Part shown: piece after piece, positions 19,761-63,117 of the stretch
Position numbering within the stretch: the stretch's first letter is position 1
Layout of the letters: each line of letters opens with the position of its first letter
Source: Squalus acanthias
Lineage: Eukaryota
Length of the DNA: 64,000 nucleotides
Assembly: GCA_030390025.1 (NCBI GenBank)
Contig: CM059431.1
Span: 120,468,001-120,532,000, forward strand
Direction: 5' to 3'
Notes under the pieces: generated by a model
Databases searched by the model: none
Told to the model about the DNA's origin: nothing
Seen by the model: the letters and a program-made list of their open reading frames with translations, nothing else
Made by a program: the position numbers and the translations under genes

Positions 19761-20167
19761 ATTATTTTTTTCAAATCTGGTAATTTGTGGGCGACCAACA
19801 TAAAATGATCATCAAACCTGATGGATTGTCCTAAAAAACCCAACAAGTTCACTAATGCCCTTCAGGGAAGGGGACCTGTCATCCTTACCTGGTCTAGCCT
19901 ACCTGGTCTGGCCTACACGCAACTATCGCACTACATTGGTTGACTTTTAACACCCTCAAGTCACTTCGGGATGGGCCACAAATCCTGAGAAGAAAATATC
20001 ATTAAAAAAAAAATCCTAACAGTAATATGCAGGCATCAAATATTAGATTGTATATTCAAATCCTTTGCTTAACAACATTTTCAAAAGTAAATGGATCAGA
20101 AATGTTATAACAGAAATAATTATTGTGAGATTGTTGAAAAACCTGACAATTGAATGATCAGAAACAT

Positions 20168-20352
20168 GGGTTAGAAATTGATCTCGGGCAACAGCCCAAA
20201 ACGAACGGTATCGGATCGGTCGCCCATTATACTCAGTGCCTGATATTCAGTCTGTTGACTGCAATGGAACTGAATATCAAGCACAGTGTATAATGAGCGA
20301 CCAATCCGATACCGCCCGTTTTGCGCCACCGCCTGAATCGAATTTCTAGGCC
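20168..20352. mobile_element. Palindromic Harbinger-type MITE (185 bp)
   Basis: Imperfect inverted repeat over its whole length; gggttagaaatt / aatttctaggcc ends; cat/aat flanks. Confidence 0.85.
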
Positions 20353-21439
20353 AATATTAAATTACAGTTCGTTATCAATGACTGTCTTCATCACTTAAGA
20401 TCACAGGATGACTTTGTGCTTCTGGCAGAGTCTTGACCACTGGGAGTGCACATTCGGAACTTGGGTACATGCTCCCTACCACTTTTCATCTACTAAAATT
20501 AATGTAAAATTGCCCAAAACATTCCAGAGGCTTGTGCAAAGACAACTACTAAAGGTTATAGCTGTAGGATTTATGATATATATGGGTCTTTCATACTTCT
20601 GAAAGCTATTTTATAAATCTCAGCCCACTGTGCCATCCAATACTTACTGTTCGGGTTTGCAACAAAACTGTTTCTCTCATTGAAGCTAAGAGTTAATTTC
20701 TGGAATAGAACCCTCTCAGCAGCTTGTGTTTCAAGGTTTAACTAAATTCGATGAACTTCAATAAGAGAAACTACATGGGGGATAACACGCTTGCCCTATT
20801 CATTTTGCAGGATTAATCTTAAAATCTCAGCGGTATCAGTTGTAAATAATCACTTGGCTATGACCGGTTACATTTGGCAAGTGATTATTCATAGGATCAG
20901 CTGAAGGTCAGCTGTGCAATGATGCTTTAAACTAATTAACTTAGTGCAAAGTGAAATCGCAGAAGAGAAGGAGTTGTGACAAGGTAGCAGTGGACATAGA
21001 CCGCAATCAATCAATGTACTCATTAAAAAGCAATTGGTTGTTCCCACTCTTGAAGTATTGTAATTATATATAGTTTGCTTTATTTCATTTATTTGGCTAA
21101 TATTTTCTAAAAATATTTTCAAATATAACTATTAGGGGTAAAAATTCAGTTGGTTGCGCCTCCCGTTAGCGCCTTAAATGGGCGCTAATGGGGCGTTAAG
21201 GCGCTAACGCCCGGGCACAGCGCTGTTTGCGCCACTCGAGAACTTAACTTGAGATTGTGCGGCGGCGCTAAAACTTACCGCTGCGACCACCTGCGCGCGC
21301 AGATTGTGACGTCATTCCGTGGTGCAACGCCCTTGGGGCGCCCCGGAGCGGAAATTGAGTGGCGCCCCCTGCCTTACCGCCTGGCGCTTCCAACGACCGG
21401 AAGACTGGAACGTTATCAATCGGTGTGGGGCTGGGGGGG

Positions 21440-21545
21440 GCGCTATTTAAAGGGGGCCTCTTCCTGTCTTTTTCTGTGGTCGACATTTATGCACCACTCG
21501 TTCTGAGAGAGAGAGAGAGATTCGGAGAGAGAGAGAGAGAGACTT
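21440..21545 (+). promoter_or_regulatory. Putative transposase promoter (TATA-like TATTTAAA followed by a (GA)n tract)
   Basis: GC-rich subterminal region, then ctatttaaagggg, then a GA microsatellite about 100 bp upstream of the ATG. Confidence 0.4.
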
Positions 21546-21646
21546 CTACATTGACTCAACGCTTTGTGAGGTAGTTTTGCCTAGTTCATCCTAACTTTGC
21601 TGCTACTTTTGTTGCTGTACCTCATTACTTTTCTGGCAAAGAGAAT

Positions 21647-22807
21647 ATGGGGGCTGCAATGATTGGGGGCGTCGTCCTGCTCCAGCTCAATCGGAGGAGA
21701 GTGAGACGCAGACAGAGAGTGGCAATGATGGCCAGACGGAGGAGGGCCATCAGGCGCATGTACAGGAGAGCTTACCCTCCCAGGGTATATCGTGAACAGC
21801 TCTCCTACATCCACATGTCCGAGGAGCTGTGTTTGCGAAGGCTGCGATTCAGCAAGGAGGTGGTCACTGAGCTCTGCCACCTGCTGCAGCCAGATCTGCA
21901 GCCTCAGCTGAGGTCCAGGACGTCTCTGTCGGTGGCAGTGAAGGTCACAGTGGCTTTGAACTTCTACGCCACTGGCTCATTCCAAGCTGCTGTTGGGGAC
22001 CTCGCCAATATCTCCCAGTTTGCGGTGCATCGCTGCATCCGGCAGGTCACCAATGCCCTCTTCACAAGGAGACGAGACTTCATCTCCTTCCCTATGACCC
22101 CAGACAAGCAGCATGACCGTGCTATGGGCTTTGCGAGGGTAGCGGGCTTCCCCATGGTGCAGGGCGCCATTGACTGCACGCATGTGGCTTTGCGTGCTCC
22201 GCGAGAGAATGCAGAGGAGTTCTGGAACAGAAAGGGGTTCCATTCCTTGAATGTGCAGTTGGTCTGTGACCACAGACAGGTGATTCTCGCTGTCAATGCC
22301 CACTATCCGGGCAGCTGCCACGATGCTTTCATCCTGCGCCAGAGTACTGTGGCAGAAATTTTCGAGGCACCGCATCAGCCAGTTGGTTGGCTTCTGGGGG
22401 ACAAGGGGTACGCATTGAGCACCTGGCTGATGACACCGCTCCGTGCGCCAAACACCCCTGCTGAGCTGCGGTACCAGGAAAGCCAACAAGCAACGAGGAA
22501 CATTATTGAGCGCACAATCGGCGTGCTCAAACAACGATTCCGCTGTCTGGACCATTCCGGAGGAGCCCTGCAGTACTCGCCTGAGCAAGTTTCCAAATTC
22601 GTAGTGGTGTGCTGCATGTTGCACAACATGGCAATCCTCAGGACGCAGCCAATGCCACCAGGCCTTGCAGCACCACAAGAGGAGGAGGAGGAAGAGGAGG
22701 AACAGGCCGAGGACGATGATCAGCAGCAGCACCAAGGCAGGAGGGCGGCCCACAATGGTCAAACTGCAAGGGCCGTCCGTCAACGACTAATAGCAAGCCG
22801 CTTCTAG
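21647..22807 (+). CDS. Harbinger (HARBI1-like) DDE transposase, 386 aa, uninterrupted
   Basis: Motifs [56 protein letters not shown] and CCMLHN. N-terminal HTH-like region (LNFYATGSFQ) and an acidic C-terminal tail. Confidence 0.95.
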   Translation: MGAAMIGGVVLLQLNRRRVRRRQRVAMMARRRRAIRRMYRRAYPPRVYREQLSYIHMSEELCLRRLRFSKEVVTELCHLLQPDLQPQLRSRTSLSVAVKVTVALNFYATGSFQAAVGDLANISQFAVHRCIRQVTNALFTRRRDFISFPMTPDKQHDRAMGFARVAGFPMVQGAIDCTHVALRAPRENAEEFWNRKGFHSLNVQLVCDHRQVILAVNAHYPGSCHDAFILRQSTVAEIFEAPHQPVGWLLGDKGYALSTWLMTPLRAPNTPAELRYQESQQATRNIIERTIGVLKQRFRCLDHSGGALQYSPEQVSKFVVVCCMLHNMAILRTQPMPPGLAAPQEEEEEEEEQAEDDDQQQHQGRRAAHNGQTARAVRQRLIASRF

Positions 22808-22918
22808 GGCCCCTGCCAGTGCTACAAACACGAATCAACCCAGCACGCAACCCCTAAGCCGGCCAAGGCACCAATAATTCCAACCACCAGCCATGTATAT
22901 TTTGAATACAGAAACTTA

Positions 22919-22974
22919 TTTATTGTACAAACTCTGTGTGTGTCAATTCCTCATGACAAACTCATAGAAATAAA
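22919..22974. terminator. Convergent polyadenylation signals between the two Harbinger genes
   Basis: AATAAA on the minus strand (tttatt, 22919-22924) and on the plus strand (22969-22974), lying between the two stop codons. Confidence 0.55.
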
Positions 22975-23101
22975 CACAAAAAAACAGTCAATAACATAAC
23001 TGGTTCTCACAACCTGGAGATAATGTCCAAAACACTAAACAAAAGTTGGGCCATGAACCTCGGCCTTTAATAAAAAAATGACCAGCATTTTGGCACACCT
23101 C

Positions 23102-24255
23102 CTACTTTTTGCCCTTCGAGGGTGATCTCCTTCCCTTGCGCACTTCCCCCCTTCTAACCCTACTGCTCCTCCGTAATGGGACCTCAGTGGCTGCAGCAAG
23201 GCTGGTGGAAGGCTGCTGCTTGTCAGACCCTGACACTGCAGATGCCCCTGAAGGACGGCCTCGACCACTTCTGGGCCTGGAGGGCCCGGCTGCAGACTGC
23301 ACCAACTCTGCATGGGCGGCAGCAGTCTGTCCTACAGGCGGTGGCAAGTGCAGTGGAGAAGTGACAGTGTTGGCAGCAGGAATGCTGTCATCGTGAGAGA
23401 GGACAGCAACTCCCTGCTCGCCCGACACACTGGCACTCCCACGGGGCAGCACTTCAGCATCCGGAGCAATTTGCTGGAGAACAGATTGCTGGCCTGCTGC
23501 GGCGCGGTGACAGCCCCGGGGACATGTGCACGAACCATCGAGGATGGCAGCAGTCAGTGCTCGCGTGGCCTCAATCTGAGTCTGCATGAGAGCAGGCTCA
23601 GATGGGTTCCTGGCAGCCAGTGACTGAATTGCAGCAGTAAGCTTTAGTGTGGCATCCGCCTGTGCTACAGCGAAGTGCTCCACACTCCTTGCCAGTGCCT
23701 CAATGCATTCGGGCACCCTTCCCACTGCACCCATGAGCTCAGTGTGCATGACCACCGCCTGGCTGTTCATTTCTGCAATCAGCCGCTCCTCCTCTGCGTC
23801 CATTGCATTAGGAGTGTCTGGCATGCTCTCCCTCTGGGGAGAAGGCTCCCGTTCTTCCCTCCCCCCCCCATGGCGTTGCTGCAGCCCGCTGGGTCCTGGA
23901 ACTTCACCATCATCAGCCCCTTCCCCCCTGCTCCCCCGTTCTTCCCTCCCCCCCCCATGGCGTTGCTGCAGCCCGCTGGGTCCTGGAACTTCACCATCAT
24001 CAGCCCCTTCCCCCCTGCTCCCCCGTTCTTCCCTCCCCCCCCCATGGCGTTGCTGCAGCCCGCTGGGCCCTGGAACTTCACCATCATCAGCCCCTTCCCC
24101 CCTGCTCCCCTCCGGGGAAGGCGTGTTCCCAGTGTGGCCATGGGCTTCCTCGGGAGAGGGTGGCACTGATGCTCCGGCTTCCTCTTCCTCCTCAGCTGCA
24201 GCATCACTCCCAGTGGCAGCTTCAGGGACCATCTCCTCAGCTGGTGAATCACCAT
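23102..24255 (-). CDS. Myb/SANT partner, exon 3 (acidic/low-complexity region, helical middle, basic C-terminus); spliced product 517 aa
   Basis: CCCTGCTTTCAG acceptor at 24256. The phase-1 join is in frame with ORF 23102..24232. Exon lengths 237+163+1154=1554 nt with no internal stop. Confidence 0.85.
23848..24110. repeat. 87-bp in-frame tandem repeat x3 (29 aa) in partner exon 3
   Basis: GSRGEGADDGEVPGPSGLQQRHGGGREER occurs three times with nearly identical DNA. Confidence 0.95.
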
Positions 24256-24414
24256 CTGAAAGCAGGGAGGTACAAGAGTGGCTTTAGCGTGCGGACAGGG
24301 TGGCAGTAAGGGAGGAATAAGTGCAGCGAGTTAGCAAGTTGGATTGAAAGTGTCAAAGGCTGGTATTGTGAGGGACAAGTGGAAGGACAGAGGACAAAAA
24401 GGTGATGACCTTAC

Positions 24415-24577
24415 CATTGCTGTCCACAACGGGGTCGGCGTCTCCAGTGGCGACGGGACCGATCACCCGGCTTGCCACAATCCTGTGGACGCGCTCCTCC
24501 AGATCGCTGAGGGGTTGCAGCTGAAGCCGCCCTCCACCCATCCGTTGCTGCTGTCTCCGATTATGAGCCAGCTTAGC
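24415..24577 (-). CDS. Myb/SANT partner, exon 2
   Basis: TTTTTCTTGCAG acceptor; AKLAHNRRQQQRMGGG...LSDLEERV; G|GTAAGG donor, phase 1. Confidence 0.85.
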
Positions 24578-24611
24578 CTGCAAGAAAAAGGACAGCATCT
24601 GAGTCAATATA

Positions 24612-24720
24612 CAGCCATGGTCTTGCCTGATGTGCCTCCCATAGGTGAATAGCCCTTACTGTATGCAGCCATGGTCTTGCCTGATGTGCCTCCCATAGGT
24701 GAATAGCCCTTACTGTATGC
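24612..24720. repeat. 54-bp perfect tandem duplication in partner intron 1
   Basis: cagccatggtcttgcctgatgtgcctcccataggtgaatagcccttactgtatg starts at 24612 and again at 24666. Confidence 0.95.
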
Positions 24721-24861
24721 AAAGTGTGGAATGTGTGTGTGTGTTTGATGAAAGGGCCATAGGTGTTGCATGAGTGTTGTGCATTGGGGTTTTAAGACCC
24801 TCTGGCCATAGAGTGAGGTTGAGATGGAGGGATGGAGAGGTATTGAGAAAAAGCCACTCAC

Positions 24862-25098
24862 CCTGACGACCCGAGTGAGGTCGTTGAACTTTTTGCGGCA
24901 CTGGACATGGGTCCTGGGCACCATGCTCCTGGAGGAGACGCTCTGAGCCACCTCCCTCCACACTCTTCTGAACTCGCGTGGCAAAGGCCTCCTGCCACTC
25001 TCCGGGAACAGCATGCATCGTCTGCGCTCCACTGCGTCAACCAGAGCATCCAAGGCCCGCTCGGTGAAGCGATGAGCGCGTTCTCTCACCCTCTCCAT
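24862..25098 (-). CDS. Harbinger Myb/SANT (trihelix) partner protein, exon 1
   Basis: ATG at 25098; MERVRERAHRFTERALDALV...VWREVAQSV...RTHVQCRKKFNDL is a Myb/SANT-like domain. Ends at an AGG|GTGAGT donor, phase 0. Confidence 0.88.
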
Positions 25099-25838
25099 GC
25101 TTGGCAGCAAAATGGATTACAGGTCTCTCCAGGCTGAGATTCAAGGCTGCAATGAGCAGGGTGTGGCTGGGGAGCAAGTGGCCCCCCCCGCTTTAAGAAG
25201 TGTCCGGCGCCAGTGTGTCTGTGTTCCCTCGCTAACTGGCAGCAGCTGCGCTGCGCTCGTGCGCTGAGTTAGCGCCTCACTCCTAGGCCTTTGCGCCTTA
25301 AGAGAGGTGTGCAGCGCCTAATTTAGCGCTCCACTCACCTCCCGGGGCGGTAAAAGTGAAGTTTCCTGTCAGTGCCGATAATTAGCGCCAGGCGCTAATA
25401 TTTGCGCGCGGACGATATTTGCGCCCCAAATGGGGCGCGACCTAATTTCTACCCCTTAGAATTTACTAAATATCAGAATATCAGTTTTACCAATTTAGGT
25501 CACCCTGCAAAATTAAGAAAGGAAACATTACATTTTCTATATCTAAATCAAAAATGATTTCTTTCAAAGTAAAAATAGTGTTATATTTTCATAGCTTGAA
25601 GTAGCGCTCAGAATGTTGATGGTTCCTCTGCTTGATCTTGGACAATGCTGTATAACGTTGCAGGATAACTATAATGGTTGTGCTGTGTCTTGTAACCCAT
25701 TTAATGTGCTAACACAACAGGCATTGATGAAGAACTGAAAATTCAATCTTTGAAGTAACTTTTATTACTCATTGCAGACTTTTGGGCAAATATTTGTACA
25801 TATATTTAAGGCAGGTTTACAAAGAAATGAAGGTTCAT

Positions 25839-27985
25839 GGGGAGAATTTTAACATGGGTGAGCGGGTGGGATTGGGTGTGGGTGGGGGGTTAAGTGGGTA
25901 AAAATTCCGAGCGCGTCGGGAAGCCGGCTCCAACCTGTCGACTTCCGGGTTTTGCTGAGGCGGGACAAGGGGCGGGCAGCCAACCCGCTCCCAGGAGGCG
26001 GGTTGGCATTTTTTTAAAAAGCAGAAAATGCTGGGAATACTCAGCAGGTCAGGCAACATCTGTGGAGAGAGAAACAGAGTTAATGTTGCATGTCGATGAC
26101 CGTTTGTCAGAACTGGAAAAAGTTAGAGATGTAAGAGAGTTTTAAGCAAGTGTGGGGCAGGGAAAGGGGGAGGGAAAGAAAGAACAAATGAGAAGGTCTG
26201 TGATAGGGTGAAAGGCAGGAGAGATTAAAAGACAAAAGGGACGATGGTGCAAGGCTAAAGGAGATAGTAATGGGAAAGTTAAGAAAAGCTAAGTCTAGAT
26301 GAGGTGTAAATGGGAATGGCAGAATCATCAACAGCTGCCATGTGAAAATAAAAATAGGGGCCGAGGTTATGGTCTGAAATTGTTGAACTCGATGTTGAGT
26401 CCAGAAGGCTGTAAAGTGCCTAATCGAAAGATGAGAAGCTGTTCCTCGAGCTTATGTTGAGCTTCATTGGAACAGTGTAGTTCAGCCAGGCGGACGAGGG
26501 TGGTGGTGGATGGGGACTGGTTGGGCCTCTGTTGAAGGAAGAAGTGGAGCGCCCTCAGGCCGTCCTGGTGGGGGATGGAGGTGTAGAGGGATTGGACATC
26601 CATAGTGAAAAGGAGATGTTTGGGGCCAGGGAACTGGAAACTTTTAAAGTGGCGGAGGGCATCGGAAGAGTCGCGGATGTAGGTGGGAAGAGACTGGACA
26701 AGGGGAGAAAAAATAGAGTCGAGATAGGAAGAAATCTGTTCAGTGGGGCAAGCATAGGCTGAAACGATGGGTCTGCCAGTGCAGTCCTGTTTGTGGATCT
26801 TGGGAAGGAGGTAGAAGCGGGCTGTGCGGGGTTGGGGAACTATGAGGTTGGCGGCCATGGAGGGAAGATCTCCAGAGGAGATGAGGTCAGTGACAGTCTT
26901 GGAAACGGTAGCTTGATGTTCGGTAGTGGGGTCATGGTCCAGGGGGAGGTAGGAGGAGGTGTCGGAGAGTTGGCGTTCAGCCTCCGCAAGGTAGAGGTCA
27001 GTTCGCCCAACAACAACATCGCACCCTTGTCAGCAGGTTTAATGACAATGTTGGGTTTGGATCTGAAAGAATGGAGTGCTGCAGGTTCAGAGGGAGGTAA
27101 GTTGGAGTGAGGGAGGGAACAGTGAAATTGAGACGGCCGATGTCATGCCGGCAGTTTGCAATGAGAAGATCTAGAGAGGGTAAGAGGCCACTGCGAGGAG
27201 TCCAGGTAAAACGAGAATTCTGAAAATGGGAAAAAGGGTCAGCTGTGCAGGGGGAAGACACCTGGCCAAAGAAGTGGGCACAGAGATGAAAGCGATGGAA
27301 AAAGAGCTCAGTGCTGTGCCGAGCTCAAAATTCATTGAGATGTGGGCGTAAGGGGAGGAAACTCAGACCTTTGCTGAGGACTGATCGTTCGAGGTCAGAG
27401 AGGGGAAGGTCAGAGGGGATAGTGAAAACACGGCAGGGGGTGAGATTGGAAGGAGGGATGGGGTCAGAGGAAAGTGAAGGGGAAGAAGGTTCCGAAGGGG
27501 TGTTGGTGTCCAGGAGTTGTTGGCATTTTAAATATGCTAATGAGGTTAGAAGCCTCAGATTTAACCTGCTTTGCAGGTTTTACTGAGGCCGGCCGGGTTT
27601 CCTGGACCCCTGGAAACCCGGCAGCTGCAGCGAGGTAAGGACAGCCTCGGAGAGAAGCTAAGTGCCTTCACAGAACTCCTTGTGGGCCAAAAGGAGCAGG
27701 AGTGCTTCCTCCAAGCCCACCAAGCACCCCCACCATCAGATCCCCTCCCCCCATTCAAAGCCCCTGGGATTGGATACCCTCTCCCGAGTTCGGGGATCGA
27801 ACCTACCTGATCCTGTGTTTCTCCCCGATCGACAGAAAGCCAGGCCTGTCAATCAGGCTGACTACCAGGCTGGGAACCTGTTAAAACTCCACAGCATGTG
27901 GTGACCTCCAAGTTTCCCGTCCAAACCTCCGCGCCCACCCCCACCCACTCCCGGCTATGCAACCTGCCCCAGTAAAATCCAACCC
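25839..27985. mobile_element. Harbinger-type non-autonomous element hosting a Penelope-like insertion
   Basis: ggggagaatttt / aaaatccaaccc TIRs with CAT TSD on both sides. Confidence 0.8.
26013..27518 (-). mobile_element. Penelope-like family 2, internally deleted (RT N-terminus fused to the GIY-YIG tail, plus pLTR)
   Basis: FYLLPKIHK..GRPIVS..LFTMDVQSLYTSIPH are PLE RT motifs, followed by EQLLIFRLGTLQPSGLN. TSD gttggcatttt at 26002-26012 and 27519-27529. Confidence 0.88.
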
Positions 27986-31010: not shown

Positions 31011-31730
31011 AAATTCAAGACTGAATTCCTGCCTATAATCTTTTGCCTGCCAGCTACAACTTTTTAAATATATAAATTTGCTTTTTTAGTCTCTGTCATG
31101 ATCTCAGTTTTCCGCTGTCACTGGGTGATGTAAACTTACAAGGTGCTTCATAGAATATCAGATCTATGCAATGATGTGGCATGTGACATTGGGCTGGTGA
31201 TGTAAAATAATACAAAATGTCACCAAATATTGAACTTTTTTGGACGGGGATCTGCAATTAAATTCACATTCACCATATAATAGCAGGTTATTTTTCTTTC
31301 CAATTAGTTGCAACTAGAAGTGTAATACAGTTCCATTGTATTTTCACATTAGTTGCACAGTTAATACAATGGTGTACAAATTGGTAGGTGTTGCACCCAT
31401 ATTTTGGTCGTAAAACATCCCAATTTAGCCGTGGTACAGCCTGGGCCCAACCTGTACTGCGCCCTTCATTTCCTTCACAAATCTCCGAAGAACTTTGATG
31501 GCAGAATGGATGTTCAGTTATGATGATTTAAGCACCGGGAAAAGGAAGGAAATAAAACACTTGAGAGTCTGCTTTTCGTCAAATCTGACAATTACAGCTT
31601 CTGACACGTGCCTGTTGAGTTGAATAACATTTCGAAAAGGATCCGTGTGGCTGATTTGATCATCTTGATTGGGCATAATAGGTCACATCCCTTAAGTTCG
31701 ACTTTTTTTCATAATGTTGTAAGATATTTA

Positions 31731-31924
31731 GGGGGAAAAATTTGGTTGCTTTGCGCCTCCCGTTAGCGCCCTAAGAGGGCGCTAACGGGGCGCAATGCAA
31801 CTAGCGCCCGGGCGCAGCGCCGCCAACACTTCCCTCTTGGGGTGCTACCACTCAATTTCGGCTGCGGGGGCGCTGCCCCGGCGAAGTTAGCGCCCCAAAG
31901 GGGGCGCAACTCAATTTCTCCCCC
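31731..31924 (+). mobile_element. 194-bp Harbinger MITE cognate to the 21135-25455 element
   Basis: TTA TSD at 31728-31730 and 31925-31927. Left end shares ttgcgcctcccgttagcgcc...gggcgctaa.ggggcg and right end shares gcgccccaaa.ggggcgc.ac..aatttct.cccc with the autonomous element. Confidence 0.92.
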
Positions 31925-32409
31925 TTAAGATCAAACTTTTCCCACCCTATCCAAAAGTTTTTCAGAAAGCTCTTGGAAGCGTTAGAAAGCTGTAAAGGAC
32001 TTCCAAAGCAGATCTTTGAAAGCGGAGAGAATGTTTAATAATGGAAGTTGAAAGGTTTAAGAATAGTTAAGCGTTTAGACAAAATAAAAAGAAGGCTGCA
32101 AAGTATGTCACAGCAGATAATGTAACAGTTTGAGTTTCTAAGCACAGAAAGAAGGTACAGTATAACTATACAGGGAATTATACTAACTACAAGGTTAACT
32201 AAAGCAAGAAAAAGGAGAAAGAAGACTGAAGACTTGCCCAATGCTACAGCAGCCAACCTACTATAAAAGGGGAGTTTTATGTCTTCTATTTATGTCACAA
32301 AGGGACAGCTGTAACATTGGAAATTACCAAGTAATATTTTGAATACAGACTAAAAGAATAACCTCCTAAACCAAATTGGGAATCTTGGACATCAGGTGTA
32401 ACTTTGCCT

Positions 32410-34829: not shown

Positions 34830-36790
34830 TGGCTCCATATTCCTTAATACCCTTGGCTAGCAAAAATCAATTGATCTCAGATTTAAAATTATTAATTGAG
34901 CTAGCATCGATTGCTTTTTGTGGGAGAGAATTCCACTCATGTACCACCCTTTGTGTGAAGAAGTGTTTCCTAACTTCTCCACATGAATGGCCTGGCTCTG
35001 ATTTTAAGGTTATGTCCCCTTGTCCTAGACTCCCCCACTAGTGGAAAAGGTTTCTCTCTATCTACCCTATCAATTCCTTTTAAAATCATAAAAACCACAA
35101 TCAAATCACCCCTTAATCTTTTATATTCCAGGAAATACAAACCTAGTTTATGCAATCTCTCTGCATAATTTAACCCTTGGAGCCCTGGTAATATTCTGGT
35201 AATATTCATGCTGCATTCCTTCCAAGGCCAATATATCCTTTCTAAGGTGCGGTGCCTGGAACTGTACACAGTACTGCAGATGTGGTCTAACCAGGGCTTT
35301 GTATAGCTGTAGCAAAACTGCCTCCCCTTTATATTCTAGCCTCTAGATATAAAGGCTAACGTGCCATGAGCCTTTTAAATTATTTTTTGTACCTGACCAC
35401 TACATTTTAGTGATCTGTGTACATGGACCCCTAAATCTCTTTGGACCTCCACTGTTCCCAGCTTTTCACCATTTAAAAAATACTTGGATCTATCCTTTTT
35501 TGGTTTGAAATGGATGATCTCACACATACCAGGGTTGAACTCCATCTGCCACATTTCTTCCCACTCACTCAATCTATCAATGTCTCTTTGTAATTTTATG
35601 CTCCTGTCTACACTACTTACTATGCCACTAATCTTTGTGTCATTGGCAAACTTGGATATATAGCTCTCTATTGTGTTAACTAAGTCATTAATAAATATAT
35701 TGAATAGTTGAGGCCCCAGCACAGATCTTTTTGGGACACCACTAGTCAATTCCTTCCAATTTGAGTACATACCTATTATCCCTACTCTCTGTCTTCTACT
35801 GCCTAACCAATCTCCTAACCAGGTCAATAATTTGCCTTCAATTGCATGAGCTTCAATTTTAGTAAACATTCTTTTATGTGCAACCTTACCAAATGTCTTC
35901 TGGAAGTCCATATAAACTACATCCATAGACATTCCCCTGTCTACTAATTTACTTACTTCCTCAAAAAATTCAATTAGGTTCGTTAAACATGACCTATCCT
36001 TTACGAATCCATGTTGGCTCTCTCTAATCAGCTCAAATTTCTCTAAGTGCTCAGCCACTCTGTCCTTAATTATAGATTCCAATAACTTCTCTATAACAGA
36101 TGTTAGGCTAACAGGTCTATAAATTCCTGGTTTCTCTCTCTCACCTTTCTTAAATAATGGAGTTACATTTGCAATTTTCCAATCTAAATGGACAATTCCT
36201 GACATGAGAGAGATTGGAAGATTATGGCTAAAGCATCTGTAATTTCCTCTCTTACTTTCCTTAGAACACTAGGGTGGAATCCATCAGGTCCCGGGGATTT
36301 GTCAGTCTTTAGTGTCATCATTTTTTCTAAAACTGTTTTCTTGCTTATGTTAACTTTAGTGAGTACCAGTCCTTGATTCATTATTAGTTTCCCTGGAATG
36401 TCAGGCATATTATCCCTGTCCTCTACTGTGAAGACTGACACAAAATAATTACTCAACAAGACTGCCTTTTCCTTATTTTCATTTGCAATATGACCTGCAT
36501 CTGTTTTTAAAGGGGCCACATTACCCATTGTCTTCTAATGTAATTGTAAAAACTTTTTGTGTTAATCTTGATATCCCTCACAAGTTTCTTTTCATAGTCC
36601 CTTTTTGCAGCTCTTACTACCTTTTTTGTCTTCCTTTGCTGTTCATTATATCTCTCCCTGTCCCCTGGATCTACACTATTCTTTGCAATGTTGTATTCTC
36701 TTTCCATTAGTTTTATAATATCTCTCATCTCTTTTGTCAATCGTAGCTATTTTATTCGGTAAGTAGAGCTTTTGCTCCTTAGGGGTATAT
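34830..36790 (-). mobile_element. CR1 LINE ORF2, reverse transcriptase region (decayed)
   Basis: KSPGPDGFHP, WKIANVTPLFKKG, YRPVSLTS, QHGFVK, YMDFQK, SGVP..SVLGP, KFANDTK. Confidence 0.93.
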
Positions 36791-37497: not shown

Positions 37498-39024
37498 GGG
37501 GTGAATTTTTCTGGGGGTCAGCGGGCACATTCGGTGGTGGGTCAGGTGGGAAATTAGTTTTTTGACAGTGGGTCGGAACCTCGCTGTCAACCCGCCGCCA
37601 CGTGACATTCACAGATGTTGGGTCTGTCAGGGCTGAACAGACCCGACACGCAGCGGCAGGGGAGGCAATTCAGGTCATTATGACTTGTTAACAGCCCATT
37701 AAAAAGTATTTTGAGCTCATCTTACCATTTTATGCTGCTCAGGAATCTTGTTGTATGACCATGGAATCATCTCATTAATTGACAGCTGCAAATGTACTAG
37801 AAAAGCTCCCATCTCATAGCTGTTCAATTTCCAACCTCAGAAGCTGTTGCTTACTGCATTTGGAAGATTGATTGAGCTTTATGGAGGTTGCAAGTGTTTG
37901 GAGCAAACTCTCTATTGAGTGTCACCTCATTGGAACAACCTCTCTCACCATTGACAGATCATTTCTGTCATCTCAACTTCACCTGCCATCTATTACATCA
38001 GCATCGGTGCCCTTGAAAAATTCTCACCTTGGTCCTCAGAATCCCACGATGATCAGCCCCAACACCAACAACATCACCGGGCACACCAGCAGTACGAACA
38101 ACAACACCAGCCTTCTCCACAAATCAACTGATGCTGCACAGGACAGAGGACATCAGCACCCGACCACTATGCTGCCCGGGATGCCAGGGATGGCCTCACC
38201 ATGGCCAGATTTACTTCACTTGACACTGTACACTCTAGCTGTCATGTGATGTGCCAGGTTGGCACCACCCCACACCAACACCATAAAGCACCCCTACAAT
38301 GCCCAAGCCATTCCTTTCACACTCACCAACATTGCGGGGGGTACCGTTAAGTCTCACCATTCACTGCAACTCACTAAGACACTTCCAAAGGTGCACACAA
38401 ATCTGTCTAAGAATGCAAAGTGTTGAAAATAAAGATTTCAATGTTTGACACCACATTAACAGAAACTTTACATGAACATTGGGTAAAACACAAAAGTGGC
38501 TACCCTTGTGTGTTGTTAGTTGGAATGATTAGACTAGGATGAGGGTGAATGTGAGAGGTGGCTAGTGAGATGGGGAAGTGATAATGTAGATAGAGAGGGA
38601 TGGGCGGAGGTGCAAGGTAAGTTGGTGTGAGTAAGGATGAGCAGGAGTAGGGTAGGAAAGGAAGAGTGATGGGGATCTGATGAGTGGCACAGCAGGATGA
38701 GGTTGAGTGTGGCTTTGCAGTAACATTTCGTGATCTACTGAGATCATTGAAAGGTTTGTGCCACTGCAGCCTGGTCCTCCTGATGACATCCCTGCTTGTA
38801 CATTCTGTGCAATGTGCAACCAGGCTGCATTGGTCTCTTGGGGAGGTCTCTTCCACCCATGGGAAGGGAAGAGAACCTCCCTGCGTGCTGTGACTCCCTC
38901 CATAAGCATATGGAGGGAGTCTGGGAGAGCCTGGGTGCAGCCTTGCACCTCTGTGCAGTGCTTGTCAGTGTTTGCAGCACCTCAATGCTGTAGAAAACTG
39001 ACAGCACAACTGTCAAAATAAATT
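37498..39024 (-). mobile_element. Internally deleted Harbinger derivative (copy of 46909-48696 lacking its left end)
   Basis: Reverse-complement colinear with 47130-48696; ggggtgaatttt terminus. Confidence 0.85.
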
Positions 39025-43480: not shown

Positions 43481-43529
43481 TTAATACTGAATTACATGTT
43501 TTGTGTCGTGTGTAGGTAATGAAGTTACT

Positions 43530-46010
43530 AGCCAATGTCCCAAACTCCTTCATCACCATCCCGGGGTATGTCTGTCCCACCGGCAGGACAGAACAACCAG
43601 GGGTGGCGGCACAGTGGTATACAGTCGGGAAGGAGTGGCCCTGGGAGTCCTCAACATTGACTCCGGACCCCATGAAGTCTCATGGCTTCAGGTCAAGCAT
43701 GGGCAAGGAATCCTGCTGAATACCACCTACACCTACCGCCCTCCCTCAGCTGATGAATCAGTACTCCTCCATGTTGAACACCACTTGGAAGAAGCACTGA
43801 GAGTAACAAGGGCACAGAATGTACTCTGGGTGGGGAACTTCAACGTCCATCACCAAGAGTGGCTCAGTAGCACCACTACTGACCGAGCTGGCCGAGTCCT
43901 GAAGGACATAACTGCCAGTCTGGGCCTGCGACAGGTGGTGAGAGAACCAACATGAGGGAAAAACCTACTGGACCTTGTCCTCACCAATCTACCTGTCGCA
44001 GATGCATCTGTCCATGACAGTATTGGTGGCAGTGACCACCGCACAGTCATTGTGGAGTCGAAGTCCCGTCTTCACACTGAGGACACCCTTCATCGTGTTG
44101 TGTGGCACTACCACTGTGCTAATGGGATAGATTCAGAACAGATCGAGCAGCTCAAAACTGGGCATGCATGAGGTGCAATGGGTCATCAGCAGCAGCAGGA
44201 TTGTATTCCACCACAATCTGTAACCTCATGGCCCAGCATATCCCTCACTCTACCATTACCATCAAGCCAGGGGACCAACCCTGGTTCAATAAGGAGTGTA
44301 GAAGAGCATGCCAGGAGCAGCACCCGGCATACCTAAAAATGAGCTGCCAACCTGGGGCAGCTGCAACACAGGACTACATGCATGCTAAAAAGCGGAAGCA
44401 GCAAGCTATAGACAGGGCTAAGCAATCTCACAATCAATGGATCAGATCAAAGCTCTGCAGTCCTGCCACATCCAGTCATGAATGGTGGTGGACCATTAAA
44501 CAATTAACGGGAGGAGGAGGCTCCATGAATATCCCCATCCTCAATGATGGTGGAGCCCAGCATGTGAGTGCAAAAGACAAAGCTGAAGTGTTTGCAACCA
44601 TCTTCAGCCAGAAGTGCCGAGTGGATGATCCATATCGGCCTCCTCCTGAGGTCCCCACCATCAAAGAAGCCAGTCTTCAGCCAATTCGATTCACTCCACG
44701 TGATATCAAGAAAAGGCTGAGCGCACTGGATACTAGATACTCAGCTCCCGACCTCATTACAGCCTTGGTCCAAACATGGACAAATGAGCTGAATTCCAGT
44801 GGTGAGGTGAGAGTGACTGCCCTTGACATCAAGGCAGCATTTGACCGAGTGTGGCATGAAGGAGCCCTAGTAAAACTGAAGTCAATGGGAATCGGGGGGA
44901 AAACTCTCCACTGGTTGGAGTCATACCTAGCACAAAGGAAGATGGTTGTGGTGGTTGAAGATGGTTGTGGTGGTTGAAGGTCAATCATCACAGGACATCG
45001 CTGCAGGAGTTCCTCAGGTCAGTGTCTTAGGCCCAACCATCTTCAGCTGCTTCATAAATGACCTTCCCTCCAACATGTCAGAAATAGGGATGTTCGCTGA
45101 TGATTGCACAGTGTTCAGTGCCATTCACAGCTCCTCAGATGAAGCAATCCATGCCTGCATACAACAAGACCTGGACGACGTTCAGGCTTGGGCTGATAAG
45201 CGGCAAGTAACATTCGCGCCACAGAAGTGCCAGGCAATGAATATATCCAACAAGCGAGAGTCTAACCACTGCCCCTTGACATTCAATGGCATTACCATCG
45301 CCGAATGCACTACCATGAACATCCTGGGGGGTCACCATTGACCAGAAACTTAACTGGACCAGCCACATAAATACTGTGGCAACAAGAGCAGGTCAGAGGC
45401 TAGGTATTCTGTGGCGAGTGTCTCACCTCCTGACTCCCCAAAGCCTTTCCACCATCTACAAGGCACAAGTAAGGAGTGTGCTGGAATACTTTCCACTTGC
45501 CTGGATGAGTGCAGCTCCAACAACACTCAAGAAGCTCAACACCATCCAGGACAAAGCAGGGCGCTTGATTGGCACCCCATTCATCACCTTGAACATCCAC
45601 TCCCTCCACTACCGGCGTACCGTGGCTGCAGTGTGTACCATCTGCAAGATGCACTGCAGCAACTCACCAAGGCTTCTTCGGCAGCAACTCCCAAACCCAT
45701 GACCTCTTCCACCTAGAAGGACAAGGGCAGCAGTCACATGGGAACACCACCACCTCCAAGTTCCACTCCAAATCACACACCATCCTGACTTAGAAGTATA
45801 TCGCTGATCCTTCATCATCGCTATGTTCTGTTACACCCTGGCACAAATCCTGGAACTCCCTCCCTAACAGCACTGTGGGAGTACCTTCACCACACGGACT
45901 GCAGCGGTTCAAGAAGGCGGCTCACCACCGCCTTCTCAAGGGCAACTAGGGATGGGCAATAAATGCTGGCCTTGCCAGTGACGCCCACATCCCATAAACG
46001 AATAAAAAAA
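43530..46010 (+). mobile_element. Non-LTR retrotransposon of the CR1/L2 group, distinct from the CR1 and L2 copies; decayed EN and RT
   Basis: EN: RGGGTVVY, YRPPS, GNFNVHH, LDLVLTN, SDH. RT: LDIKAAFDRVWH, GVPQ.SVLGP, MFADD. Ends in polyA; internal deletion in the RT N-terminus. Confidence 0.9.
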
Positions 46011-46908: not shown

Positions 46909-48696
46909 GGCCGAGATTTCACCTACCGAGGCAGGTCCAGTACGGTCGGGTTCGGTGGCGGGGTGCGACCCCTCCGCTGGCTCCATCCCGCTCTGTGAAA
47001 ATAATTTTACGATGATTGGGCTTGTTCAGCCCGCCCAGCATATTTCCCAGCCAATTGAAGGAAGCGGGTCTGATGACGTCACTTGCTGACAAGTCATCAG
47101 CCGGTTTCCTTAAAGGGACCATACGCAAATTTATTTTGACATTTGTGCTGTCAGTGTTCTACAGCATTGAGGTGCTGCAAACACTGACAAGCACTGCACA
47201 GAGGTGCACGGCTGCAACCAGGCTCTCCCATGACGCCCTCCATATGCTTATGGAGGGAGTCACAGCACGCAGGGAGGTCCTCTTCCCTTCCCATGGGCAG
47301 AAGAGACCTCCCCAGGAGATCAATGCAGCCTGGTTGCACATTGCACAGGAGGGCACAAGCAGGGATGTCGTCAGGAAGACCAGGCTGCAGTGGCGCAAAC
47401 CTTTCAATGACCTCAGTAGATCACAAGATGTTACTGCAAAGCCACACTCAACCTCATCCTGCTCTGCCCCTCATCACATCCCCATCACTCTGCCTTCCCT
47501 ACCCTACTCCTGCACATCCTTACTCACACCAACCTACCTTGCACCTCCACCCATCCCTCTCCATCTACATTATCACTTCCCCATCTCAATAGCCACCCCT
47601 CACACTCACCCTCATCCTAGTTCAATCATATCAACTAACAACACCCAAGGGTAGGCACTTGGGTGTTTTAGCCAATGCTCAGGTGAAGTTTCTGTTAATG
47701 TGCTGTCAAACATTGAAATCTTTATTTTCAACACTTTGCGTTCTTGGACAGATTTGTGTGCACCTTTGGAAGTGGCTTAGTGAGTTGCAGTGAATGGTGA
47801 GACTTAACGGTACCCCCCGTAATGGCGATGAGTATGAAAGGAATGGCTTGGGCATTGTAGGGATCCTTTATGGTGTTGGTGTGGGGTGGTGCCAACCTGG
47901 CACATCATGTGGCAACCAGGGTGTACAGCATCAAGTGAAGTAAATCTGGCCATGGTGAGGCCGACCCTGATGTCCCGGGCAACAATGTGGTCGGGTGCTG
48001 ATGCCCTGTGTCCTGTGCAGCACCAGCTGATTGAGGAGAAGGTTTGTGTTGTTGTTGGTGCTGCTGGTGTGCCTGGTGCTGCTGGTGTTGGGGCTGATCA
48101 TGGTGGGATTCTGAGGACCAAGGTGAGATTTTTTCAAGGGCACCAATGCTGATGGAACAGATGGCAGGTGAGGTTGAGATGACAGAAGCATTCTGTCAAT
48201 GGTGAGAGAGGTTGTTCCAATGAAGTGACACTGGATAGAGAGTTTGCTCCAAACACTTGCAAGCTGCAAAAAGCTCAATCTGTTTTCCAAATGCAGTAAG
48301 CAACAGGCTTCTAACCTTGGAAAGTGAAGACCTATGAAATGGGAGCTTTCATAGACCATTTGCAGCTTTCACGTTAAGAAATTATCCCATGCTGACACAA
48401 CACCCGACCTCCTTACCTGACGTGATCCCCGAGCAGTGGGGAAGCCATTGGCAAAATCTAAAAATCTAAAGGTAAGCATAAAATACTAGTTATTTGCCTC
48501 TGAACAATCCAGCTAATGATTTAAATTGCCCCCCCTGCCGTTTGGTGTCAGGTCTGTTCAGCGATGACAGACCCGACATCTGGGAGACTAGCGTGGAGGT
48601 GGGTTGACAGCGAGTTCCCTACCCGCTGTCCAAAAAAACATTTACCCAGCCGACCCGCCACCAAACGCGCCCCCAGACCCCCAAAAAATTCCGGCT
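46909..48696 (+). mobile_element. About 1.8-kb internally deleted Harbinger derivative inserted in a DeuSINE head
   Basis: ggccgagattt / aaattccggct ends. Myb remnant EGVTARREVLFP..AWLHIAQE..WRKPFNDL plus convergent transposase N- and C-terminal remnants. Confidence 0.82.
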
Positions 48697-59026: not shown

Positions 59027-60124
59027 ATGGGTGCTGCTTATGCTGTTTCACCTTGGACCTCAGATTCTGACCAAGATGAGCCCCAGCACCAACAACACCA
59101 ACAACAGCAGCAGTTTCTTTCTCCTCAGCAACCTGAAGCTCCACCGGAGAGAGGGGATCAGCACAGGGGTGCACCGTGCTGGAGGCGATACCCCCAACAC
59201 AGGGTATACAGGCAGAGGATGAGCTTACTGGACATGACTGAGCAGCAGTGCCTCAGGAGGCTCAGGCTATCACACCAGGTCGTGACAGACATTTGTAGCT
59301 TGCTGGAAGACGACCTGCTGCCCAGAGGAACTAGTGGACATGCCTTACCAGTGACTGTCAAAGTCAACACTGGCCTCAACTTCTTCACCTCAGGCTCCTT
59401 CCAAGGATCTGCAGCAGACATTTGCAGGATTGCGCAGTTCGACTTTATGGCTCTGGCTGGTTTCCCACAGGTGCAGGGCATCATCGACTGCACACATTTG
59501 GCCATCAAGGCATTCCCAGATCACCCAGGAATGTTTGTGAACCGGACGAGCTTCCACTCCCTCAATGTGCAGCTCGTCTGAAACCACAAAATGATCATCA
59601 TGGATGTGTGTGCCAGATTCCCAGGGAGCTGTCATGACTCTTTTGTCTTGTGCCAATCCACCCTCCCTCAGCTCTTCTCACCTCTGAACAAACTTACCAG
59701 CTGGCTGCTTGGAGACAAGGACTGTCCACGTGGCTGATGACACCCTTGAGGAGGCCAAGCAATGATGCTTAGGAGCGCTATAATGAAAGTCATATGATGA
59801 CCAGATGTGTCATAGAGCAAGCAATAGGCATGCTGAAGATATGCTTCAGATGCCTTGACAGATCTGGAGGAGCCCTCAGTACGCAGCAGCCAGGGTTTCC
59901 AGAATGATAATCGTATGCTGCGCACTGCACAGCAGCGAGGATTGGAGCTGCAGGAGGAGCAAGGCACAAAGCGCACAGCCTCTTCGGAGGAGGTGGAGGA
60001 ACAGGTGGAACACAAGGAGGAGGAGGAGAAGGAGGAGGAACCTGAGATGGACATGGCACCAGCAGCGGTGTACATTGCTTCCTGGGAGGCCCGGGACAGC
60101 CTCAGAATGCCCCGATTTAGTTAA
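59027..60124 (+). pseudogene. Harbinger transposase pseudogene
   Basis: MGAA start, [28 protein letters not shown] and WLLGDK; deletions and frameshifts. Confidence 0.92.
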
Positions 60125-60459: not shown

Positions 60460-63117
60460 TTTTTCTCTTCAGAGTGCTTCTACGAGGTGCACCCCCTATG
60501 GCTTCAGTAGAGGTAGAGGCAGGCTGCTCACTTCCCTACTGTGACTGCTTAGACACTTTTGCCGGATGTCTTCTGAGTTTTGGCGCCTGTGAGGGCCCCG
60601 CCAAAGACTGCTCCTCTTGTAACTTTGAAGGGGCAGACTCAGCCATCGGGATCCGAGGCAGCATGTGGAGCTCTGACTGAGGGGGAGGCAACAGTGGAGA
60701 AGTGGGAGTGATTGGAGCAGTGCCTCCACTTCCATGTGCCCCCTCACCATCATCCCTCTCATGGGCTACCCGCACTTCCCTGCTAGCAGGGAGCTAGAGA
60801 GCACCTTGCTGCACATCAGTGGGGCAATGTGTGAAGGAATAAGCCATATTCAGAAAAATACACCATTCTATGAAATATTCTGGCCTTTGAAACCTGACAA
60901 ACTGGGCTTGATAATCTGGAAGCCTCAACAATCTAAAGCTGTGAACAGCATACAGGCTGTTGAGATAAGATAAGTTGTTGACACTGAATCAATAACCTTG
61001 TTGAAACAGAAGGTTAGAGGTTCCTGAAATTCTGAAGCCTTGGAAAGAACACAATGGTATACCCTGTTAAAGTGTCTTAAACCAACACTTTGGAAAGAAA
61101 CACATAAAATTAAAGAAACATATGCCTTTGTAAAAATGACATCAAATGAAATACGGAGACACGACTCTGTGTTACAACCAGTTGAGGTAACTAAGAAGAC
61201 AATGGTGCACCTGATTGAGGTGTTCTAAATGCAAAAGATACAAACAGAAGACATTGGTAAAAATGACATCAAATAGATGCACCAGCCATCACATTGTTTT
61301 TATGATAAGCTTCGAACACCTAAAGGTAGAGACACGATTCTTAATGCTACAAGCTGATCTAACTGTAAAAATAGCAGGGGTCAACAGAAAAATGACTAGA
61401 GATAATTAGCTTACATCAGCAGAAAACTTCAAAGGATATACCACTGAGAAAGGGTATAAAAATTGAACTCTCAAATGGGAAGATAGATTCGCTGTAAAGG
61501 GGCAAAGCTCTGTAAGTCTACAACTCTTTGTATCTCGGGGATCAAGGTACTTGTATTTGATTTTGGTGGATATCCTGGAATAAGACTAAGAAATGTAAAA
61601 ATGTAGCGAAGTTAAGATTTGAGAATAAGGATCTCTGATAGTAGAATTGTAAGATTTTTGTATTTGGAACTGTTAATGTTGTGATTGAATCACCTACTGT
61701 AATTACATGTCGGTTCTTTAATAAATCTATATATTTTTACAATTGTCTCACATAGTACTTCTGTATCAAACTTGCAAACTCAATCTCTGTATGCTCTTTG
61801 GTGAGGAGTTGCAGAATTCTGAGGGAGTTTTCCGGACCCTCATAATATCCGGAAGGTTACAGTCTAGCTAAACTTATTAAAAGTGCTATCTGGAGGATGG
61901 TAACATCTTTAGGTTGTTCCGTTACTTTAGGGAGAGATAGTCTGGACCTTTAGACGCAATTAAGCATCTTTAGGATTCGGCTACCTCTAACTTTAGTTGA
62001 GAGTGAACGTCTGGGGAATACGCCTGATCCGGGGTAGCCCTAAAGTGGCTAAGACTAGTAATTATCCCTTCAAATGTATGCCCAAGTCTACATTGGTATC
62101 CTTTCTAGAGCTGAGTTCAATAAGAGTCTGCAAGCTGTTGTTCACAGCTAGAATGTTTTTGTTTGACTGGCGCATTAGCTGCTCCATGCAGGTGGCCATC
62201 CTTTCCATGGAAGAGCACATCGTCACCACTTGATGGACCTGTGGGAGGGTAAAGACTTGAATTAGAACTCTTATGATAAGAATGTTTAACATTATCATTA
62301 TGCACATCATGATATTTCACTGGGTGCTGACATCAGTCACCATGAGTGACTTTGTATGCCATGTGGCTGATTGATATTTAATTCTGCCACCAGGTTGCTA
62401 GGAGGTCCCCCTCTCTCCATCTCCCACCGCCAGCAGCTCTGCCACTCCACTTAATTCCAGTGCCTCCTCCTCTGATGGCGTCAATGTAGTGTAAATTGGA
62501 GGCCACCTCCAGTTTTCAGTCCCTCCCTGTTGTTCTGTGCTCTCTTCTCCGGCAAGGAGAGAAAAAAGAGAACTTTGAGTGAGAGTGGTGGAATGAGTAT
62601 AAGGGATGGATGGGTTCCATCTGTAGAAGGTGACTATGAGGGAGTGGCATGACATTGCCAAATGGCCTCCTTCTGTGGCGTTACTTTCTATGATTGCATT
62701 AGGCTTAGAGTGAGTGTCAGTGGTGGATAGTCATATGTGAGTAGGTGCATAGACAGTGAGGGATGGGTGCACCTGCAAGGTATGTTGGTTTGAGGAGTAT
62801 TGTGCAGGAGTAGGAATTTGGGAAGATAGAGTGATGGAGTTGGGGTGACATGCACATCAGGATGTAGTTGAATGTGGCATTGTACTCACCTTTCTTGACC
62901 TCATGAGGTCATTAAATCTCTTCCTGCATTGAATCCAGGAGCAGCTGACAACACCCCCACTGTTCACTTCTTGGGTGATCTCCAGCCATGCCCTCTTGGT
63001 TTCAGTGGCTGGTCTCTTCCTGCCGTCACCTGGGAAGAAGACCTCCTTCCTTGCTCTCATTCCCTGGAGCAGAATGTCCAGGGAGAATCTGAAAACCTGG
63101 GCGCAGTCTTCTGGCAC
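60460..63117 (-). pseudogene. Harbinger Myb/SANT partner pseudogene (exons near 62890-63117, 62400-62550, and 62073-62235 + 60460-60831), split by a solo LTR
   Basis: AWLEITQEV..SWIQCRKRFNDL followed by a GTGAGT donor at the same position as in the intact element; C-terminus PASTSTEAIGGAPRRSTLKRK. Confidence 0.8.
60832..62072 (+). mobile_element. Solo LTR (1241 bp)
   Basis: TGAAGGAATAA...TTATCCCTTCA inverted termini; flanks aatgtg/aatgta; TATAAAA at 61455 and AATAAA at 61720; interrupts a Harbinger exon. Confidence 0.8.

Follow-up and report, generated by a model that had tools for sequence, protein, structure and literature searches.

Does a shark genome hold a Harbinger transposon that is complete as found in nature and that moved recently, and could such a copy still be mobile? 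This question was raised by a stretch of 64,000 nucleotides of Squalus acanthias DNA (contig CM059431.1 of assembly GCA_030390025.1, forward-strand positions 120,468,001 to 120,532,000; the whole stretch is hereafter called the window), in which an initial annotation, made from the letters alone, had proposed an intact two-gene PIF/Harbinger element at 21135-25455. After analysis of its ends, its target site in public sequencing runs, its two genes and their homologues, we give a probability of about 0.82 to the following reading: the element is a complete PIF/Harbinger transposon of the autonomous type, it belongs to a very abundant family, its site is empty in two samples, it was likely inserted recently by cut-and-paste transposition, and its Myb-like protein is predicted to recruit the DDE transposase through subterminal motifs. 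The features are listed in Table 1.

Ends, empty site and abundance of the family

The element's terminal inverted repeats (TIRs) are short and imperfect, with pairing at 11 of the 12 terminal bases and at 14 of 18 over a longer stretch, and a TTA stands outside each end as a target-site duplication (TSD). Such a combination of an 11/12 TIR with a 3-bp direct repeat was found for none of 200,000 random position pairs taken from the window. Public sequencing runs were then used (of 24 listed, 20 contain some of the stretch; 10 studies; none is listed as RNA, with four being RNA by guess), and contigs were mapped from four of them, X1 and X3 (DNA of organism A), X9 (DNA of organism C) and X17 (RNA by guess). 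In X1, record 2 (depth 7.9) joins window positions 20307-21131 (record 1-826) directly to 25456-25850 (record 827-1217), and the identical join of left and right flank was found in record 16 of X3 (depth 10.7; record 1032-207, then 206-25). X1 and X3 are distinct samples from distinct studies, and the empty site carries a single TTA in both, which confirms the ends of the element and its 3-bp duplication, as the initial annotation had proposed. The same contigs show that the insertion is not fixed across the X1 and X3 samples and the window, and it was likely a recent one, made by cut-and-paste transposition. Mapped contigs show presence and not absence, and the filled allele may also occur in X1 or X3; if either is the source of the window, the animal could be heterozygous at the insertion site.

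The number of contigs mapped to the element family was 27,823 for X3 and 42,041 for X1, of which 6,278 and 9,690, respectively (about 23%), are at least 99% alike. Summed depth ranged from 1.9e5 to 1.5e6 within the element against 8 to 14 in the unique flanks, but summed depth is no copy count, so the ratios of about 3e4 and 7e4 were not taken as numbers of copies. The depth peaks at the ends of the element, as expected if miniature inverted-repeat transposable elements, or MITEs, share these ends. Taken together, the family is very abundant and its copies are spread in age. The claim of a recent family thus held, being supported directly by the empty-site contigs in two samples, by how abundant the family is and by a splice joint seen in a run that is probably RNA (see below), and a single fixed copy is excluded.

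In X9, eight listed contigs cover 21714-25165 with 92.6-99.6% identity and lie on the element only, the missing cover of the flanks carrying no weight; the matches of up to 99.6% in organism C could come from a related shark, from carry-over of host DNA or from horizontal transfer. X17 likewise leaves the unique flanks uncovered. In scans of metagenome and viral contigs, none of 595 and none of 601 pattern matches, respectively, could be confirmed. About 600 bp to the left of the element, a moderately abundant repeat was detected at 20135-20516 (summed depth 650-6,800 against about 10 alongside).

Table 1. Position and evidence of the features of the PIF/Harbinger element and of its short relative (positions in the window)
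Feature	Position	Strand	Evidence
Whole PIF/Harbinger element, 4,321 bp	21135..25455	+	Step in depth at each end; 21131 joined to 25456 in empty-site contigs
Left target-site duplication, TTA	21132..21134		Single TTA left in empty-site contigs
Left terminal inverted repeat	21135..21146	+	Matches right end at 11/12
Left subterminal region, CpG-rich, repeated TAGCGC-type motif	21147..21460		Candidate Myb binding sites (inferred)
Transposase open reading frame, 386 aa	21647..22807	+	ATG at 21647 to stop
3' region common to both convergent genes, 294 bp	22808..23101		Poly(A)-like signals; function inferred
Myb-like gene, exon 3, with an acidic linker, a region predicted to be helical and a basic C-terminal tail	23102..24255	-	Colinear with P0130
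In-frame triplication in exon 3, 87-bp (29-codon) unit	23848..24110		Copies 99-100% alike
Intron 2, 159 nt, GT-AG	24256..24414	-	Predicted, then skipped exactly in 3 X17 contigs
Myb-like gene, exon 2	24415..24577	-	Homologues P0007 and P0130 align through
Intron 1, 284 nt, GT-AG	24578..24861	-	Homologues read across junction
Myb-like gene, exon 1, Myb/SANT (trihelix) domain	24862..25098	-	PF13873, PF13837
Right subterminal region, CpG-rich, TAGCGC-type motif repeated as at left end	25200..25443
Right terminal inverted repeat	25444..25455	-	Matches left end at 11/12
Right target-site duplication, TTA	25456..25458		TTA repeat and empty-site contigs
194-bp non-autonomous relative (MITE), TTA on both sides	31731..31924	+	Similarity of its ends to those of the element 81% over 90 nt and 84% over 38 nt

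The two genes and the proposed mechanism

The transposase frame is uninterrupted, as had been claimed, and carries the acidic residues D176, D226, D252 and E288 at the positions counted before. It matches the Pfam family DDE_Tnp_4 (PF13359) with an E-value of 8.6e-38. In the predicted structure (pLDDT 90.1), D176 is part of the first strand, D252 follows just behind the fourth and E288 belongs to a long helix, and these residues (22172-74, 22400-02 and 22508-10, respectively) are likely to form the catalytic triad. Placement on the first strand, after the fourth strand and on a long helix is usual for the DDE triad in the RNase H fold. The best fold comparisons of the model, at modest Z, were with the transposases of piggyBac (Z 9.9, root-mean-square deviation 5.1, 227 residues aligned) and Tn5 (Z 8.9, deviation 5.9, 243 aligned), and the helical region 69-145 resembles helix-turn-helix (HTH) folds with Z 5-6. 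A search of the PDB by sequence yielded no relative (3 chance rows only), and Foldseek yielded nothing at E 0.001 or better.

For column conservation we used the best 120 of 371 homologues, which are nearly all shark or ray proteins labelled HARBI1, the closest being 65% identical; the exact sequence of the window transposase was not found in the protein collection searched. Of 95 columns conserved in at least 80% of the 120 homologues, 92 agree in the window transposase. D226 is an additional conserved residue (81 of 114 homologues), and R284 and K295 are retained, as is the triad. In a tree of 39 rows, composed of the window transposase and 38 homologues picked for coverage and species spread, the window transposase sits within an 18-row clade of elasmobranchs only (support 98/99), and this nesting, judged from the protein sequences, fits vertical descent. 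The homologues and the tree by themselves make a shark the most likely host. Elsewhere in the tree, five clades with short branches unite distant sharks and rays (P0004/P0005; P0009/P0012; P0039/P0040; P0021/P0024/P0063; and P0008/P0016/P0020/P0026); several are without the catalytic E, and the five look like independently domesticated Harbinger transposase genes.

The partner gene lies on the opposite strand. Splicing of its three exons at GT-AG introns gives a frame of 517 aa with no internal stop, in agreement with the intact spliced partner gene proposed initially. Exon 1 matches Myb_DNA-bind_5 (PF13873) with E 1.3e-9; when it was searched against longer proteins, 1 match was obtained from 158 candidates. 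Residues 11-514 of the spliced model align to a 554-aa sawshark protein that also starts with a Myb domain (E 1.3e-52), thereby supporting both introns and exon 3. The joint from 24255 to 24415 (CT..AC ends) was found in three contigs of X17 and in none of the DNA runs X1, X3 and X9, which suggests that one or another member of the family is transcribed and spliced, X17 being RNA by guess. A joint for intron 1, which holds a 54-bp tandem duplication at 24608-24715, was not among the 15 joints listed of 61. Where exon 3 carries three 29-codon units, the homologue P0130 has a single one, and the contigs of X1 show joints that drop 175-179 nt at this triplication. Complex prediction for transposase residues 40-335 with exon-3 residues 148-245, in which the alignment was not used, gave a score of 0.00 twice. 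As a side observation, P0131 of Pristiophorus japonicus (801 aa), a PML-like protein with RING, B-box and coiled coil, resembles Myb exon 3 at 35% in its C-terminal part (E 3.5e-26), which suggests either exon capture from a Harbinger or a chimeric gene model.

The two end regions contain 5 and 4 copies of the hexamer TAGCGC, the 194-bp MITE has 4 and the 3,452 interior bases have none, and a TATA-like site lies at 21444 in the left subterminal region. Between the two stop codons, poly(A)-like signals are found on the plus strand at 22969 and 23069 and on the minus strand at 22924 and 23071. The element is structurally complete with both genes open, that is, a two-gene Harbinger of the autonomous type. 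By analogy with Harbinger3_DR and rice Ping/Pong, the two convergent genes would be transcribed from the CpG-rich ends, and the Myb/SANT protein would bind the TAGCGC-type repeats near both ends, bind the transposase and carry it into the nucleus, the basic C-terminal tail being the putative import signal. The RNase H-fold core (D176, D252, E288) would then cut the element out and insert it at TWA with duplication of 3 bp. Precise excision would be expected, and the same two proteins could mobilise short derivatives, for instance the 194-bp element (31731).

Competence of the copy and rival explanations

Several findings weigh against the reading of a recent and autonomous insertion. As to the insertion, organism A may be a sister species of the window's own; no contig shown crosses a junction between flank and element, so that the filled allele is known from the window alone; and about 42% of the mapped contigs are just 90-95% alike, indicating that much of the family is older. 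As to transcription, X17 is RNA only by guess, the shorter side of the joint has 24 letters, any copy could be its source, and one X17 contig (24756-25002) crosses the exon 1 donor unspliced. As to the proteins, the helix bearing E288 carries Q277 in place of N (105 of 115 homologues; Q in none) and Q280 in place of H (96 of 117 homologues; Q in 4). These account for two of the three disagreements at the highly conserved columns; no homologue has both, and their distance from R284 and E288 is one and two turns. Against the six deepest X9 contigs, the copy has 36 differences in 2,287 letters (1.6%), and against all eight listed 54 in 2,577; at 1.6% change without selection, both frames stay open by chance in 24% of simulated copies. 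Of 204 variant sites, the 40 with the best support include 26 coding ones; a residue is changed at 3 of the 8 that lie in the transposase and at 15 of the 18 that lie in the Myb gene. Finally, the triplication in Myb exon 3 is near-perfect and in frame.

The protein findings bear on the alternative that survives best, to which we give somewhat less than even odds: the copy would look intact and yet be functionally dead or weak (Q277, Q280, A256, exon-3 triplication), having been moved in trans by the proteins of other copies. This differs from our reading on autonomy only, and the structure is compatible with it. The departures at conserved transposase columns, the many residue-changing differences from the family majority and the chance of open frames all speak for it, and the MITE with related ends shows that movement in trans occurs. 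On the other side, the triad, R284 and K295 are retained, and the triplication is in frame and within a low-complexity linker. In addition, N to Q takes two base changes within one codon, and neither codon 277 (22475-77) nor codon 280 (22484-86) is among the 40 variant sites, so that the Q pair may be a trait of the whole family; when short fragments of the family's proteins were sought in order to assess this point, 8 matches were obtained, the best at 53%. On balance, the odds that the proteins of the window copy are catalytically competent are near even, and function of the native transposase and Myb partner in mammalian cells appears rather doubtful.

The second alternative concerns the empty contigs, which might be not pre-insertion alleles of one population but those of a sister species, or the product of precise excision of an older insertion. 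Compared with the window, the left flank of the empty site shows 4 changed letters and 1 gap over 825 positions (about 0.6%) and the right flank 4 gap letters, and excision of PIF/Harbinger elements is usually free of footprints (PMC2836001). Either version, however, still requires transposition later than the 0.6% divergence of the flanks, and the CpG content of the copy is above that of the neighbouring relics; we consider this alternative unlikely, at appreciably longer odds than the preceding one. An assembly artefact, with a repeat copy misplaced between two unique flanks, would agree with the lack of contigs across the junctions, but such contigs are expected to be missing, as contigs built from short reads are cut off at the boundaries of very abundant repeats, and TTA is found on both sides of the filled site and once in the empty site, exactly as transposition yields; it is highly improbable. 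The least probable of all, a fixed and single-copy host gene pair domesticated after the manner of HARBI1/NAIF1, is suggested by the label 'putative nuclease HARBI1' of database homologues and by the domesticated appearance of several shark and ray clades, but it is refuted by the empty alleles and the tens of thousands of contigs, and the TIRs, the TSD and the position of the window transposase outside those clades also speak against it.

The abundance of CpG pointed out initially proved to be true in part: the observed/expected ratio is 0.99 and 0.81 at the two ends, and that of the whole element (0.55) is above the rest of the window (0.41) and four relics (0.24-0.42), but it is 0.57 for the transposase and only 0.37 for exon 3. 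As proof of youth CpG is weak, because 14 of 103 equal-sized windows outside the element also reach 0.55. The MITE, which spans 31728-31927 with its TTA duplication, has a ratio of 0.9. The decay of other coding elements was confirmed, since only 7 of 68 open reading frames of at least 105 aa outside the element match Pfam, all being fragments or under the cut-off. Two older Harbinger transposase relics, at 1127-2315 (minus strand) and 59213-59933 (plus strand), are broken by stops or frameshifts; both share 42-59% protein identity with the intact transposase and retain an N-x-x-H motif. Related stretches with Myb-domain relics lie at 37503-39024, 47128-48691 and 62669-63110, the first two forming an inverted pair that is 85% alike over 1.5 kb. 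Fragments of non-LTR (long terminal repeat) retrotransposons (reverse transcriptase, endonuclease and a weak GIY-YIG) were found at 35378-36268 (minus), 43491-45338 (plus) and 10204-10590 (minus).

Comparison with known systems

The element shows the features of the PIF/Harbinger group of the PHIS superfamily, namely a TWA duplication, a DDE transposase with an HTH-like region, a second frame with a Myb/SANT domain, and TIRs. This group has been described with a 3-bp TWA duplication, TIRs from 5 bp and 88 families with both frames intact (PMC4482050), and the 12-base TIRs are within that range, although below the 25-50 bp termed usual in PMC9179366. The NuwaI group was ruled out by its CWG duplication, and the ISL2EU group by its AT duplication and YqaJ exonuclease frame, against TTA and a Myb/SANT frame here. 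Symmetry of the flanks around TTA is weak: out of 10 positions, 4 are symmetric at one site and 6 at the other of only two sites; the contexts at these two, A|TTA|G and T|TTA|A, fit TNA and are without the 5' C of the C|TNA|G of NuwaII.

As background for cartilaginous fish, a survey of 2022 reported no Harbinger in the elephant shark and stated that other members of the class needed examining (PMC9179366), while in the grey reef shark DNA transposons make up 1.58% of the genome, Tourist/Harbinger being the commonest (PMC12498223). A search of the literature by titles and abstracts found neither a shark Harbinger family described at the element level (the supplements of PMC4482050 and PMC9179366 may list elasmobranch elements) nor an unreconstructed vertebrate Harbinger transposing in cells, and the Squalomix preprint contains 0 occurrences of 'Harbinger', 'PIF' and 'DNA transposon'. 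Natural mobilisation of a Harbinger has been reported in a nematode (10.64898/2026.05.26.728016), and the native Spy element is named as the active PHIS tool (PMC11304231, PMC12637253).

The finding bears on Harbingers in cartilaginous fish, the architecture and the mechanism being already known. The very abundant family, together with an insertion that is not fixed, indicates that DNA transposition has remodelled the genome of an elasmobranch in recent times. Work on the mechanism in vertebrates has used a reconstructed Harbinger; here the ends of a natural copy are mapped, one splice joint supports its gene model and its empty site is known, so that activity can be put directly to the test. 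Its enzyme activity is putative, and the copy is a candidate for trial as a natural gene-transfer tool. A bolder view, which we regard as speculative and rather improbable, would make it a natural vertebrate Harbinger that is still jumping in living sharks, ranks among the commonest DNA transposons in its genome, carries Q-x-x-Q for N-x-x-H, and has native proteins usable in mammalian cells for two-component, TTA-targeting and footprint-free gene transfer.

Among the known relatives, the shark and ray proteins labelled 'putative nuclease HARBI1' are the nearest, with Pristiophorus japonicus P0001 at 65% and P0002 at 60% identity and the Myb-like P0130 colinear with the partner, and they represent the same lineage of transposase and partner; unlike the window element, they are gene predictions without description at the element level, and the full D-D-E set is present in 53 of 109 only. 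Presence/absence variation is shared with PIF-Harbinger elements of the common carp (9.10% of insertion polymorphisms; PMC13583293) and with the polymorphic, lineage-specific Harbinger insertions of Malawi cichlids (10.1101/2025.10.13.682009), but these are bony fish, and the passages of both reports do not tie the insertions to an intact two-gene element. Rice Ping/Pong with mPing (PMC2836001) resembles the shark element in its PIF/Harbinger membership, TTA/TAA duplication, two proteins, MITE partners and precise excision, and differs in its plant lineage and in that its activity has been demonstrated.

Harbinger-Snek of sea kraits (Laticauda; PMC8437027) is alike, by description, in having a transposase gene and a Myb-like gene, expansion on a massive scale, non-autonomous derivatives of short length and reads over both genes. 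Its 269 intact copies in the single species L. colubrina indicate that the rarity of an intact vertebrate copy, as implied by the initial annotation, was overstated. Harbinger-Snek arrived by horizontal transfer, whereas the shark transposase lies within an elasmobranch-only clade, and for the window element the one locus is also seen with an empty allele. The zebrafish Harbinger3_DR/Harbinger3N_DR is a two-protein system in which both proteins are needed for transposition in human cells (PMC2836001, PMC3016246, PMC9179366), its Myb-like protein binding the ends and the transposase and being needed for nuclear import (PMC2836001, PMC9179366, PMC9392472). Harbinger3_DR is, however, a consensus reconstruction with a CWG duplication in a 15-bp palindromic target, whereas the window holds a natural copy with TTA and weak symmetry of its flanks.

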